The notes: generated by a model not told the origin, from the sequence alone. Numbered from the stretch's first letter, positions 21,226 through 35,854 are shown. The stretch is 64,000 nt of DNA from Escherichia coli (GCF_003334785.1 NZ_QOWV01000002.1); one strand, 5' to 3'. Program-made: numbers and translations.

Positions 21226-23229
21226 TCATCCTTGTTGCTGAAGCATGGGGAATAATTGTTCGCAAAGCAAAACACCGTTATTCATTGCTTCTACCCGTGC
21301 CTCGCTTTCTGTATTACGAAATTGTGCCAACACATGTGCCAGCCGATAAAAACCCACCGCGGTGAGGTCATTCGCCAGCAACTCTGCCTGACTAATAGCG
21401 CTCTGTTCCTGATAGCGCCAGCCGTTATGGAGCAGTTGAATAAGTAACGCCTGGCAGCGCATCAGCAACTGATGAGCAGTAGACGGCACAGGCAGAACGC
21501 TGGTAGAAGGTAGTGATACCACCACAGGCGCAGTTTCTGCGTCCAGCGCCCAGGCACGAGTCTTTGTCATCATTACCTGTGGTTCCAGTGTCAATTGCCC
21601 ATCAACAAAACTGACAAAGCCAGAAACCAGATACACGGGGTCGTCTGTTTGTTGCAAAAGCGCCGCCATGCGTTCAACGGCATAAGGCGCGCTGGCTGAG
21701 GCTGGCAGTGATAACGTCAGCAGATTATCTTCACCTTCGCCGCTGATTACCTGCGCATCCAGCGTCTGGCGGCTGCTATCCCAACCGAGCGAAATACACT
21801 CAGCGACCGGCAGAATAAATAAGTTATCGACCTGATTAAGAGGCCGTATGCAGGCGGGGGGACGCTGGCGTAAATATTCCCGCAAAGCCACAATGCCCGG
21901 CTGGCGTAACGGCGCGCTCAACATTTGCCAGGCATCAGGCGACAGCGGCACAACGCTGCTTAAGCGGTTGCGGGTAGCTAACAGCAGCTCGCCATCGGCA
22001 CTGCGTTTTGCTGCTTGTGAAACAATTTGCCCGCCCGCCAGTGCGCCAGCCTGAAAACTAAACAGCCGACGCGTAGCTGCCGGTGAGTTTTCCTGTTCAC
22101 TTCGCGGCCAACTGCGCGAAAGGTGCAAAATACTGCCGGTGTCGGGATCGGTAAACCAGATGCGTAAACCATAATGCTCAATATCCTGCCAGCAACGCAT
22201 ACCTAAAGACACCAGCCGCAGATGATCAAGCTTTGCTTCTCCGGCAATGCCTGCGCCAACGACCGTGCGCCACGGCATGGGAGGAATTTCACCAACACTG
22301 TCGCGCTGCGCCATTTCGTGTGCGCAATTTAATCGACTGTTTAATGCGGCAAGCTGACACAAGCATTCTCCGGCATGATAATGGCTTGCGCGGGCGTGGA
22401 AGGCATCAACGCTGGCGCGCAGTTGCCGTAGCGATTCACTCACCCATCGCCAGTTGCAGCGTTCCGCCGCTTGCTGCGCGCGGCTGAAAGCGGCCTCGTA
22501 GTGAATAAGCGGCTGGCTGATGCCGCCAAGCCATAATGCCTGGCTTAATTGCTGAACATATTGACGACACGTTTGGCCTTCTTCGCTGGCAAACGGATCG
22601 TCAGATGATGTGACGTGTTCGCTGCGCATCTGCCAGATTAAATGGTTAAATTCTGCTTGCTGCGCTTTGGCCTCGACGAAGGCCTGTACCGCCAGTACGA
22701 TATGTTCGCAAAGAGTGCCTTCAATACAATCACAACGGGCGAAACGAATGCTGCTGCGGGAATAAAAACGCACATCGCTCATCGGTAAGCGGGCAGAGGG
22801 AATTTCGCCCGGCGTACAGAACAACTCAATGGTGATGCCTTTAGCGACCAGCGCCTGCGCGCGTTTGCGGGTGGCATCGGGCAGGGTAGCCAGTTCTTCC
22901 AGCCAGATTGCCGGATCCCACTCTTCTTCTTTTTCCGCAGGCTGGGCGGTAGCACAAAGTCGTTGATAACTTAACACCAGCATCACGCGATGACGGCACA
23001 TGCCGCTGGCCCCACAGGTGCACTGAGCCTCTTTCAGTGCCTGGCCGTTCGCCAGCTGGGTACGGACACCGTCACTGAAGGTGGCGATTAAAGCGCCGTT
23101 CTCATGGCTGATTTCCGGGACGTTGCCATTTTCCAGTTCCTTAAGGCTGCGCTTAACAAAACCGGCATTGCTTAACGCCGTCAGTGCCTGTGGTGTCAGT
23201 TCTAATAATTCCGGACGTAGTGAATTCAT
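21226..23229 (-). CDS. yehQ: protein with two SWIM-type zinc-finger motifs, function unknown
   Basis: Two CxCx5CxH motifs (CTCGASGMCRH and CDCIEGTLCEH). Start chosen at MNSLRPELLEL... because its ATG forms a 4-nt ATGA overlap with the yehP stop; track ORF begins 24 nt further upstream. Confidence 0.8.
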   Translation of the reverse strand: MNSLRPELLELTPQALTALSNAGFVKRSLKELENGNVPEISHENGALIATFSDGVRTQLANGQALKEAQCTCGASGMCRHRVMLVLSYQRLCATAQPAEKEEEWDPAIWLEELATLPDATRKRAQALVAKGITIELFCTPGEIPSARLPMSDVRFYSRSSIRFARCDCIEGTLCEHIVLAVQAFVEAKAQQAEFNHLIWQMRSEHVTSSDDPFASEEGQTCRQYVQQLSQALWLGGISQPLIHYEAAFSRAQQAAERCNWRWVSESLRQLRASVDAFHARASHYHAGECLCQLAALNSRLNCAHEMAQRDSVGEIPPMPWRTVVGAGIAGEAKLDHLRLVSLGMRCWQDIEHYGLRIWFTDPDTGSILHLSRSWPRSEQENSPAATRRLFSFQAGALAGGQIVSQAAKRSADGELLLATRNRLSSVVPLSPDAWQMLSAPLRQPGIVALREYLRQRPPACIRPLNQVDNLFILPVAECISLGWDSSRQTLDAQVISGEGEDNLLTLSLPASASAPYAVERMAALLQQTDDPVYLVSGFVSFVDGQLTLEPQVMMTKTRAWALDAETAPVVVSLPSTSVLPVPSTAHQLLMRCQALLIQLLHNGWRYQEQSAISQAELLANDLTAVGFYRLAHVLAQFRNTESEARVEAMNNGVLLCEQLFPMLQQQG

Positions 23230-35000: not shown

Positions 35001-35854
35001 TCCGTCAGTGATAAATGTTTACGTAGGCGTAATTCAAATCTGGAATATTGCTCCAAGTAGCTAGGTGCAATGCCAGACGGCAGAATAATAATGACATTAT
35101 TCGCATAATCCCATTCAATATCAATCTGTTGAAGGTGTATTATTACATCAGTAGCATATTCCAGACCGCCTTCCTGGACGATCTGATCCATAACATCCTC
35201 ACGCACTTTATATCTTGTGCATTTCATTTCAAGTGCCGTGAGTACAGCCATTACTGGTGATGGTAACTGTGTTGTTTTCAGGCCGTCGATCTGACTGATC
35301 GCCTGGGCGACGGTGTTTTGCCATTCTAAAGAACAGGCGCTGAAGTCAAATGTGGCTGTTTTATTATCCCGTTGCGACACACTACAGGCTAAGCGACGTA
35401 ATTGGGTCAATTTGTCTGCTTGCTGAACAGGAACTCCGGGAAAGCGGCGATGACTTAACGTGGTGTGTACAACTTCGGGCGGAAAAACGACAGCAATATC
35501 TTTCGCCAGCCACGGTAAAACAGCATCTGTATTTTTGTCAGGCGCACGGGTTTCTGCTACGAAAGAGGGTTGTTCCTGAATAATGGTGGATAAGTCCGCT
35601 ACCTTGAGAGAGCCCGTTACCGTTTGGGAAGGTTGCAAAGAATTATCCTTCGCTTGCTCCACATACCCCTTCTTCACCTTCTCCGCAATCAGCTTAAGTT
35701 CCGCTTTTTCCGCTGCCGCAGCATCTGAAAAACTTTTTATCTGACTTTGCCCTTTGGTGCCAACTTTTCCCCAACTGATATGCAACTCGTTTCCCTGTTG
35801 CTCCACCGCCCAGAATTTATGTGATTTTTCGTCCTGATAGATAAAGTGTCTCAT
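32060..35854 (-). CDS. molR: WGR-domain protein (annotated historically as molybdate metabolism regulator), intact 1264 aa
   Basis: N-terminal WGR-like motif FWAVEQQGNELHISWGKVGTKGQ; remainder paralogous to YehI; single uninterrupted frame. Confidence 0.8.
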   Translation of the reverse strand: MRHFIYQDEKSHKFWAVEQQGNELHISWGKVGTKGQSQIKSFSDAAAAEKAELKLIAEKVKKGYVEQAKDNSLQPSQTVTGSLKVADLSTIIQEQPSFVAETRAPDKNTDAVLPWLAKDIAVVFPPEVVHTTLSHRRFPGVPVQQADKLTQLRRLACSVSQRDNKTATFDFSACSLEWQNTVAQAISQIDGLKTTQLPSPVMAVLTALEMKCTRYKVREDVMDQIVQEGGLEYATDVIIHLQQIDIEWDYANNVIIILPSGIAPSYLEQYSRFELRLRKHLSLTEESLWQKCAQKLIAAIPHIPEWRQPLIALLLPEKPEIAHEIAQRLLGQKKLPSLEWLKIVATDEHILASLEKYHEPYAIFDDYYCGAIWSATVLQEQGVAALPRFAPYAASDYCADVLRHINHPFALTLLIRVAGQTKRCHDRMTKAIAAFPHAAMAALTELLGQKEENSWRIMLMTMLISQPALAEQVIPWLSTPAVAVLKSCQQQLTQPSNHASADLLPAVVVSPPWLSKKKKSPIPVLDLAPLGIEPICYLTEEISNQLLAKYIWYSKHITVSHEESTTNLLARMGFQRRIAGTYIKAPEAVVEAWLNEDYSTLLSEFKVFHSPTGHYWQLGILTTLPLEKAVKAWNALTLSPHTDTEYSMLHFGLKGLPGLVNSLARYPQEALPITNYFAASELAPAVARAFNKLKTLRENARSWLLKYPEHALTGLLPAALGKAGEAQDNARAALRMLTENGHQPLLQEIARRYNQPEVTDAVNALLALDPLDNHPTKIPTLPAFYQPSLWTRPVLKANAQSLPDSALLHLGEMLRFPQEEALYPGLLQVKDVCSADSLAGFAWDLFTAWQTAGAPSKESWAFTALGVLGNDDTARKLTPLIRAWPGESQHKRATVGLDILAAIGSDIALMQLNGIAQKLKFKALQERAKEKIADIAESRELTVAELEDRLAPDLGLDDNGSLLLDFGPRQFTVSFDETLKPFVRDVSGSRLKDLPKPNKSDDETRANDAVNRYKLLKKDARTIAAQQVARLESAMCLRRRWSLENFQLFLVEHPLVRHLTRRLIWGVYSAENQLLACFRVAEDNSSSTADDDLFTLPEGDISIGTPHVLEISPTDAAAFGQLFADYELLPPFRQLDRNSYALTEAERNASELTRWAGRKCPSGRVMGLANKGWIKGEPQDGGWIGWMIKPLGRWSLIMEIDEGFAVGMSPAELSAEQLLSKLWLWEGKAERYGWGSNSTQEAQFSVIDAITASELINDIEALFE

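Follow-up and report, generated by a model that had tools for sequence, protein, structure and literature searches.

The molR-yehI and yehLMPQ genes of Escherichia coli as the probable halves of one conserved five-family module, divided by a lineage-specific insert

Introduction

MoxR-class AAA+ ATPases (AAA_5) are encoded beside VWA proteins with a MIDAS site in the RavA-ViaA, CbbQ-CbbO, and NorQ-NorD systems, and the paired genes are tightly packed or overlapping. Seven MoxR subfamilies have been described, and one of them is named YehL (PMC3893208). Similar components are found in three other kinds of systems. The vWA-MoxR "ternary" conflict systems combine a MoxR and vWA core with large, variable partners (Kaur, Burroughs, Iyer, and Aravind 2020, PMC7159879). 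The class I chelatases CobNST and BchHID have an AAA+ ATPase, a VWA subunit, and a partner of ~140 kDa. Midasin (Rea1) follows the same AAA-plus-MIDAS logic, but it is one giant eukaryotic polypeptide that acts on pre-ribosomes.

Here we consider a 14.6-kb block of the E. coli chromosome that contains molR, yehI, yehK, and yehLMPQ. YehL and YehP are a MoxR-class ATPase and a VWA protein, and they are separate bacterial proteins rather than parts of one polypeptide as in midasin. Unlike RavA-ViaA, CbbQ-CbbO, or NorQ-NorD, the system that we describe includes three more obligatory families: DUF4132 (often with a WGR domain, and in multiple copies), DUF5682, and a SWIM protein. Its taxonomic range (soil and "multicellular" bacteria) is like that of the vWA-MoxR conflict systems, but we saw no effector-associated or death-like domains and no matches in PADLOC, and PMC7159879 was not among the full-text search matches for DUF4132 or DUF5682. 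In contrast to the class I chelatases, the large proteins MolR and YehI lack homology to CobN or BchH, and SWIM, WGR, and DUF5682 are additional.

We found no description of the five-part association (DUF4132, YehL, YehM, YehP, and YehQ) in the literature that we searched, and no paper that links DUF4132 to yehLMPQ or to DUF5682, although Snider & Houry 2006 may already list molR/yehI as neighbors of the YehL subfamily. We will argue from gene order that the block is probably the E. coli copy of a conserved, self-contained module of five families, which is divided by an Escherichia-specific insert (yehK and zor-orz). If so, then seven uncharacterized E. coli genes, which make up about 0.3% of the genome, fall into a single conserved module whose components can be listed.

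Results

Genes and boundaries of the block

All of the genes in the block are on the minus strand of the window (the whole 64-kb stretch of DNA that we analyzed), with metG upstream and yehR (20640..21101, minus strand) downstream. The upstream boundary is the intrinsic terminator of metG (35962..35985, minus strand), which a terminator scan identified with a folding energy of -15.5 kcal/mol (z = -4.87). The first gene, molR (32060..35854), is intact and encodes 1264 amino acids, with a WGR domain at residues 6-69, a long helical region, and DUF4132 at residues 988-1173. It is followed by yehI (28418..32050), which encodes a 1210-amino-acid paralog of MolR without WGR (DUF4132 at residues 954-1138); the two proteins are 37% identical over about 1180 amino acids. 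Next is yehK (28040..28357), a 105-amino-acid orphan ORF within an AT-rich insert (39% GC). The other genes are yehL (26645..27733), which encodes the AAA_5 ATPase; yehM (24355..26634; DUF5682); yehP (23226..24362), which encodes the VWA protein and overlaps yehM by 8 nt; and yehQ (21226..23229), which encodes a SWIM zinc-finger protein and overlaps yehP by 4 nt.

The preliminary description of this DNA had reported seven co-oriented minus-strand genes between the metG terminator and yehR, and its coordinates, strands, and hairpin were all as we found them. The seven genes are present, but an eighth was missed: an orphan antitoxin sRNA gene of the OrzP type between yehK and yehL (27845..27920, minus strand). 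The Rfam model for OrzO-P (RF02083) matches 27920->27845 with 101.3 bits (the gathering score is 60; E = 3.7e-16) and aligns over positions 1-76 of its 76 positions. Since this sRNA gene has its own promoter inside the block (TTGCAA-17-TATAAT at 27934..27962, minus strand), the block comprises eight genes in three or more transcription units, not two.

The intrinsic terminator between the two halves of the block (27841..27870, minus strand; bidirectional-looking) begins 170 nt after the stop codon of yehK and had been attributed to that gene. The hairpin (27870-27841) is AACCUGC-CUCACCA-GCAGGUU and then U7AU3 (-19.1 kcal/mol, z = -7.45); its 7-bp core stem is lengthened by A/U pairing, and the stem-loop with a U-tract is what is expected of a Rho-independent terminator. 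We dropped the attribution to yehK because the full-length Rfam match and the alignment to strains with zor-orz identify the hairpin as the 3' end of OrzP. As for its being the only clear terminator within the block, other matches were weak and lay within coding sequence, but there is a comparably stable hairpin between yehI and yehK (28389..28410, minus strand; 10 bp, -18.3 kcal/mol, z = -5.05), albeit without a U-tract.

Alignment to the zor-orz loci of O157 and E138 also reveals a remnant of the divergent promoter for the zor toxin (TTGCAA-16-TATAAT at 27957..27984, plus strand), which, along with about 27-30 nt of the zor 5' UTR, spans about 27957-28020 of the plus strand. A full zor-orz type I toxin-antitoxin locus has a 29-amino-acid Zor ORF with a 5' UTR of ~174-180 nt, and O157 F8798 has two copies of this ORF. 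In contrast, we found no 29-amino-acid hydrophobic Zor ORF on the opposite strand in 27730-28420, and alignments to one- and two-copy strains (O157, E138) show that the toxin region is deleted in the window. The window therefore has an "orz-only" remnant and not a full toxin-antitoxin locus. It matches the described orz-only locus of OrzPmg (PMC2887945, PMC3919570, PMC11264685) in its position between yehK and yehL, in the sequence and structure of the sRNA, and in the promoter, the terminator, and the stub of the zor UTR. MG1655 carries the same orzP gene, and expression of the OrzPmg sRNA has been published (PMC11264685). The orz-only state itself is thus already published, and our only new point is that the OrzP element divides a conserved DUF4132-yehLMPQ module. 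[quoted passage not shown]

Conservation of the neighborhood

The preliminary description had proposed conservation of the molR/yehI and yehLMPQ neighborhood as a test. Using YehM (DUF5682) as the seed and one genome per species, we recovered 80 loci, which belong to Enterobacterales, Burkholderiales, Xanthomonadales, Myxococcota, Actinobacteria, and Acidobacteria. Six loci had no DUF4132 gene, but four of these were cut off at yehL, which leaves 76 informative loci. MolR/YehI-like DUF4132 genes are present in 74 of the 76, with 1-5 copies each, and they abut yehL-M-P-Q on the same strand in about 72-73 of the 76, from at least five distant lineages. The DUF4132 genes are upstream on the same strand in 68 loci, with a median estimated gap to yehL of 60 nt; 48 of the estimated gaps are at most 100 nt, and 24 are at most 30 nt or are overlaps. 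(The gap from yehI to yehL in E. coli is 684 nt.) Other arrangements include a DUF4132 gene directly 3' of yehQ in five Burkholderia loci and a WGR-DUF4132 gene between yehL and yehM in one metagenomic locus. The exceptions are myxobacterial: in two loci (L038 and L043), no DUF4132 gene lies within about 8 kb of yehLMP(Q), and in a third (L047), DUF4132 is 8.5 kb from the cluster. Within a genus the cluster is syntenic, but different lineages have different genes on either side of it, and no sixth gene family recurs in the flanks across the sampled taxa.

The neighborhood thus bears out molR and yehI as partners of yehLMPQ, but not yehK, which had been grouped with them. Among 81 loci, phmmer matched YehK in E. 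coli alone, tblastn matches were confined to Escherichia records, and YehK has no Pfam match.

In the other direction, we searched for homologs with the DUF4132 profile by word index. Most of the proteins that this gave were short or truncated, which makes for a poor reverse sample, so we supplemented it with an exhaustive search of representatives. The DUF4132 genes adjoin the AAA_5/DUF5682/VWA cluster in 6 of 8 informative look-ups (two more fell on contigs that were too short to judge), although both the YehM- and the DUF4132-seeded samples are biased toward the loci most similar to the query. These loci include a permuted order, AAA_5 / WGR-DUF4132 / DUF5682 / VWA. The other two (L090 and L098) have no cluster within 10 kb of DUF4132. 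The exhaustive search found 7670 clusters of DUF4132 proteins at 50% identity, and such a large family suggests that DUF4132 proteins may also work alone.

The module has five families: DUF4132 (WGR/helical; MolR and YehI), YehL (MoxR AAA+), YehM (DUF5682), YehP (VWA/MIDAS), and YehQ (SWIM). Judging from gene order, it is a single operon in most lineages. Given the adjacency across lineages, the ancestral state would therefore be one operon, and the split in E. coli would be derived. In Escherichia, the AT-rich, lineage-specific insert (yehK and zor-orz) would have been wedged between yehI and yehL. The synteny supports the suggestion that molR-yehI and yehLMPQ may act jointly, while the roles in the phrase "sensor/scaffold plus engine" are ones that we infer.

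Protein families and conserved residues

We examined the functional residues of the ATPase, VWA, and SWIM proteins in sets of 74-80 sequences. The orthologs of YehL match PF07728 (AAA_5), and the Walker motifs are intact: the Walker A motif (G83-S90) and E156/E157 are conserved in at least 90% of 80 orthologs. The best match to YehL among solved structures is to the AAA modules of midasin (E = 3e-10), and it also matches a MoxR structure (2r44). Orthologs of YehP contain the VWA domains PF05762 and PF13519, and the MIDAS residues (D222-x-S224-x-S226, T256, and D307) are conserved in at least 90% of 77 sequences. The SWIM motif of YehQ (C70-x-C72-x5-C78-x-H80) is conserved in at least 90% of orthologs.

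The structural model of YehM has an N-terminal alpha/beta domain that resembles TraB, ChaN, and EreA, followed by a HEAT/ARM-like solenoid. In the predicted structure, the N-terminal domain shares the alpha/beta fold of the TraB/TIKI/ChaN/EreA superfamily, and YehM has two invariant GxxH motifs, along with glutamate/arginine residues. Unlike members of the TraB/PrgY/TIKI/ChaN/EreA superfamily, YehM has this domain fused to a HEAT-like solenoid of ~450 amino acids, and it does not match the TraB profile: Pfam's TraB had no hit to YehM even at E <= 10. Because of this, catalytic activity for YehM is a conjecture. Still, the TraB/ChaN-like fold predicted for DUF5682 appears to be newly seen and is a possible enzymatic lead.

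Sequence searches of the PDB with YehM, DUF4132, YehQ, and YehP gave nothing meaningful. NCBIfam gave weak matches only, below threshold (GvpN, MadB, McrB, and CobT-like), besides a Leptospira family that matched in its WGR portion.

Regulation and variation in E. coli

Upstream of molR is a candidate LexA (SOS) box, AACTGGATAAAATTACAGGG (35862..35881, minus strand), which ends 7 nt before the ATG and has the CTG-N10-CAG form of the E. coli LexA regulon. A relaxed AT-rich pattern, CTG-K-W9-CAG, occurs once in the window, where 0.05 occurrences are expected. molR has been listed as LexA-regulated, with a known SOS box (PMC6590174), and it is a long-listed yet unexplained member of the SOS regulon. 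On the other side of the insert, yehL and yehM are documented to be silenced by H-NS. The insert would thus create separate transcription units with separate controls. Unrelated regulation had been named beforehand as counter-evidence to a functional island, and the documented controls do differ in E. coli, yet the synteny supports a module.

We also looked for LexA/Cheo boxes upstream of WGR-DUF4132 genes at more than 50 loci. The E. coli box is common only to Escherichia and Intestinirhabdus. We discounted matches to GAAC-N4-GTTC in Lentzea because they lie about 240 nt upstream, within the preceding gene. In Deinococcus, the DdrO DNA-damage regulon includes DUF4132 and WGR genes (Deinococcus study).

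Essentially every E. coli carries the cluster at the same core position. Either half (molR-yehI or yehLMPQ) can be lost on its own through IS elements, and in strains with such a loss, the half that remains often contains pseudogenes, which is suggestive (n = 4 strains). There are also suggestive signs that molR and yehI are more diverged within E. coli than yehLMPQ and metG are: the 90-95% identity band contains 2255 and 2071 genomes for molR and yehI, versus 563 and 205 for yehLMPQ and metG.

Discussion

How might the module work? We tentatively suggest that a YehL hexamer, coupled to the MIDAS site of YehP, might spend ATP on remodeling or assembling a complex; we consider this possible, but not probable. 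That complex would comprise MolR/YehI and YehM, which are solenoid proteins, plus YehQ, and RavA-ViaA, CbbQ-CbbO, NorQ-NorD, BchI-BchD, and midasin would be mechanistic likenesses. The tandem, fast-diverging DUF4132 paralogs could be interchangeable sensor or client subunits, WGR and SWIM would be likely heads for contact with nucleic acids, and the TraB/TIKI-like domain of YehM would be the only candidate for a catalytic output. The cue is probably tied to DNA damage or foreign DNA.

One alternative is that the module provides immunity against phages or mobile elements, with DUF4132 proteins as diversifying sensors, YehL/YehP as an NTP-dependent switch like that of vWA-MoxR conflict systems, and YehM as a TraB/TIKI-like effector. 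The tandem DUF4132 copies, which vary in number and diverge quickly, are consistent with this, as are the H-NS silencing of the yehL region, the two independent insertions of toxin-antitoxin genes into the cluster (zor-orz in E. coli and RelE/HTH in Rhodoferax), and the resemblance of the carrier taxa to those in which such conflict systems abound (PMC7159879). However, none of the eight proteins matched any family in the PADLOC-DB 2.0 models (E <= 0.01), we detected no classical effector (nuclease, TIR domain, or pore former), and the fixed position in E. coli and the synteny within genera are not those of a variable island. Overall, we think that a role in immunity is somewhat unlikely.

A second alternative, which we consider improbable, is a chelatase-like machine, or one for maturation of a cofactor or metallocenter, in which the ATPase and the VWA protein would act with a large subunit (~140 kDa), like CobS-CobT-CobN or BchI-BchD-BchH. 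Such a role would suit the historical name of MolR, "molybdate metabolism regulator." But Pfam scans of MolR and YehI found WGR and DUF4132 only and no CobN/BchH domain, the WGR and SWIM domains and the SOS box would be unexpected, the flanks have no recurrent genes for metabolism or cofactors, and molybdate genes were not co-regulated in the Deinococcus study.

That molR-yehI-yehK and yehLMPQ are unrelated neighbors, co-oriented by chance or hitch-hiking and acting independently, would fit their separate regulation, the terminator and sRNA gene between them, the loss of either half alone, and the DUF4132 genes that are away from any cluster, but it is already contradicted by the synteny (the adjacency is kept across distant lineages with gaps mostly under 100 nt or overlaps, the families stay together even in alternative gene orders, and the flanks are not conserved), and we consider it very improbable.

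Returning to a remodeling module, a more specific and rather doubtful idea is that DUF4132-YehLMPQ might be an unrecognized and widespread ATP-driven surveillance machine. The WGR/DUF4132 proteins, as interchangeable subunits, would sense damaged or foreign nucleic acid, and the MoxR-VWA motor would license YehM, as a TraB/TIKI-like hydrolase, and the SWIM protein. If true, the cluster would represent a novel type of immune or DNA-damage response, and it would be tractable in E. coli with an intact molR.

K-12 is a natural partial mutant: its yehLMPQ is silenced by H-NS and its molR is split into yehF and a yehH pseudogene. This combination may explain the absence of a phenotype so far.

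Layout of the gene block

Several complete genomes match the 14.6-kb block at 100% identity, and the window is E. coli chromosome. We placed the genes using the RefSeq annotation of an identical strain together with the list of ORFs, which bear out the block coordinates of the preliminary description (21226-35854). All of the genes are on the minus strand: metG (35995-38028) and its terminator (35985-35962), molR (32060-35854), yehI (28418-32050), yehK (28040-28357), yehL (26645-27733), yehM (24355-26634), yehP (23226-24362), and yehQ (21226-23229). Spacing is tight between molR and yehI (9 nt) and between yehL and yehM (10 nt), while yehM/yehP and yehP/yehQ overlap by 8 nt and 4 nt. 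Here molR is intact (1264 aa); in K-12 MG1655 it is split into yehF and the yehH pseudogene.

MolR and YehI are paralogs (37% identity across ~1180 residues). MolR has a WGR domain (residues 6-69) and DUF4132 (988-1173), and YehI has DUF4132 (954-1138) without WGR. YehL is a MoxR-class AAA+ ATPase whose closest solved structures are the AAA modules of midasin and the MoxR structure 2r44. YehM is DUF5682, and YehQ contains a SWIM finger.

A five-family module conserved across lineages

As a marker for the block we used YehM. We aligned 15 homologs, down to 45% identity, and scanned GTDB with one genome per species, which gave 80 loci: 6 from Enterobacterales, 34 from other Proteobacteria (Burkholderiales, Xanthomonadales, and Neisseriales-like), 32 from Actinobacteria, and 8 from Myxococcota, "delta" or Acidobacteria. 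The six-frame ORFs of these loci were compared to the E. coli proteins with phmmer and then to an iterated HMM for DUF4132. Conservation of the neighborhood held up: DUF4132 ORFs were present in 74 of the 80 loci (one copy in 44, two in 10, and at least three in 20), and in 53 of the 74 a DUF4132 protein bears a WGR domain. Because the contigs of four of the six exceptions end at yehL, 76 loci are informative, and among these, phmmer and the HMM found DUF4132 to be absent altogether only from L038 and L043. These two loci and L047, which lack an adjacent DUF4132 gene, are from Myxococcota/delta metagenome-assembled genomes. YehQ was also undetected in L043 and L047, a hint that loss of DUF4132 and loss of the SWIM protein may go together.

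DUF4132 is upstream on the same strand in 68 loci. The estimated gap to yehL has a median of 60 nt; it is at most 100 nt in 48 loci and at most 30 nt, or an overlap, in 24, as is typical of Actinobacteria. The 684-nt gap to yehL in E. coli is an outlier, as is L047, where DUF4132 is 8.5 kb from yehL. In five Burkholderia loci the DUF4132 gene is immediately 3' of yehQ, and in Labilithrix it is divergent from yehL.

For the reverse test, we started from the DUF4132 domain by itself, a family of 7670 clusters at 50% identity, and looked up ten members, of which 8 were on contigs long enough to judge. AAA_5/DUF5682/VWA genes adjoin DUF4132 in 6 of the ten, and 2 had no cluster within 10 kb. One metagenome contig (L095, 4310-15821) has a permuted order: AAA_5 (yehL), a 1632-aa WGR-DUF4132 protein, DUF5682, VWA, and a 675-aa YehQ-like protein, followed on the opposite strand by two Band_7 genes. 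From the counts in both directions, the linkage is near-obligate for yehLMPQ, and for DUF4132 it is common but not universal.

The preliminary description asked if molR-yehI-yehK and yehLMPQ are one functional island. Conserved synteny strongly supports this idea except for yehK, which had a match only in E. coli among the loci examined and has no match in Pfam. The island would instead be a module of five families: DUF4132 (in variable copy number), YehL, YehM, YehP, and YehQ. No sixth family recurs across lineages in the flanks of these loci; the flanking genes vary between lineages and are conserved within genera. The literature that could be searched yielded no account of the five families occurring together. 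yehK and orz are Escherichia-specific passengers, and yehR is outside the widely conserved module. This lipoprotein gene (20640-21101), 3' of yehQ on the same strand, was seen only in E. coli and Klebsiella (L002/L078, 15417-15887).

An orphan antitoxin gene between yehK and yehL

The hairpin that was initially described as the terminator after yehK (27841-27871) is real and strong (AACCUGC-loop-GCAGGUU, then U7AU3; -19.1 kcal/mol, z -7.45), but it ends an sRNA, OrzP, rather than yehK. It starts 170 nt from the yehK stop. A full-length Rfam match to the OrzO-P antitoxin family spans 27920->27845 on the minus strand (101.3 bits, gathering score 60, E = 3.7e-16), and in the Rfam model this hairpin is the terminator. 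A promoter, TTGCAA-17-TATAAT (27962->27934), lies 5' of the match. The list of seven genes missed this orphan OrzP-type antitoxin gene (27845-27962, minus strand), which has a promoter and terminator of its own and whose zor toxin is deleted. This gene is unannotated in the RefSeq records that we examined, including MG1655.

We aligned the yehK-yehL spacer to those of O157:H7 F8798, which has two orz genes and two opposite-strand 29-aa ORFs (ZorO/ZorP), and strain E138, which has one zor-orz pair. By this alignment, the toxin gene(s) are gone from the window, and we found no Zor ORF in its spacer; what is left of the locus is the orz gene nearer to yehL, ~30 nt of the zor 5' UTR, and the divergent zor promoter. 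The OrzP gene is already published, and the spacer is in the published "orz-only" state, which is found in ~30% of E. coli, including MG1655, where the OrzPmg sRNA is expressed (PMC11264685; for the history of the zor-orz locus, see PMC2887945 and PMC3919570). The spacer is AT-rich (39% GC, versus ~53-57% in the flanking genes).

A second stable hairpin (28410-28389; 10 bp, G+C-rich, -18.3 kcal/mol, without a U-tract) lies directly past the stop codon of yehI, with 30 nt separating it from yehK. It may act in partial termination, or in stabilizing or processing the RNA. In a Rhodoferax metagenome-assembled genome (L089), the yehP and yehQ orthologs are separated by an inserted RelE/HTH toxin-antitoxin pair (15982-16666); this is a second, independent toxin-antitoxin locus lodged within the cluster.

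Regulation of the two halves

In E. coli, the molR/yehI half and the yehLMPQ half are regulated differently. molR is among the LexA-regulated genes and has a known SOS box (PMC6590174); we found a LexA-type box, AACTGGATAAAATTACAGGG, at 35881->35862, and the window has a single match to the relaxed pattern. The SOS box is common to E. coli and Intestinirhabdus, and none was detected upstream of the orthologs searched from beyond these genera. For the other half, Ueda et al. reported that H-NS has an intergenic peak near yehL/yehM and that yehL and yehM are de-repressed in hns/stpA mutants (PMC3686432). Klebsiella spallanzanii (L002, 8692-8724) has a terminator-like hairpin, with a 14-bp stem and a T-tract, between the yehI and yehL orthologs. 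Klebsiella has neither yehK nor orz, so the two halves may have become partly uncoupled before the Escherichia insert arose.

Potential function of the module

The Walker A/B motifs of YehL, the MIDAS of YehP, and the CxCx5CxH SWIM motif of YehQ are kept in at least 90% of the 74-80 orthologs. The most economical model draws on the analogy of known MoxR-VWA pairs, chelatases, and midasin, and in it YehL and YehP would form an ATP-driven remodeler. The DUF4132 proteins would be variable sensor or client subunits, YehM would be the scaffold and possibly the catalytic output, and WGR and SWIM are probable nucleic-acid-contacting modules. SOS control in E. coli and the control of DUF4132 and WGR genes by DdrO in Deinococcus suggest that the cue is DNA damage or foreign DNA. 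The module may be an immune system, but PADLOC had no match for any of the proteins. It may also be a chelatase-like maturation factor, but domain scans found no CobN/BchH domains in MolR or YehI. The module as a whole appears to be a novel variation on MoxR-VWA systems. A structure model of the DUF4132 domain (pLDDT 84) had no informative structural neighbor.

Variation within E. coli

Across 5,426 complete genomes, and requiring at least 80% of the query, molR was present in 4011, yehI in 5223, yehLMPQ in 5203, and metG in 5425. The 90-95% identity band held 2255 genomes for molR, 2071 for yehI, 563 for yehLMPQ, and 205 for metG. Within the block, then, it is the DUF4132 genes that have diverged further and are damaged more frequently. 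A resistance transposon is inserted in the block region in an ST131 sublineage, and either half can be deleted by itself through IS1 or IS3 events; the surviving half holds a pseudogene in 4/4 inspected cases, which is anecdotal.

Some E. coli have extra DUF4132 paralogs, with molR matching up to 5 places per genome. In E. coli UTME-3 (L092, 9001-18274), three DUF4132/WGR genes are upstream of an IS3-disrupted yehI. The metG query had 219 matches on plasmid records of complete E. coli assemblies, which is surprising for a gene that encodes a core aminoacyl-tRNA synthetase.
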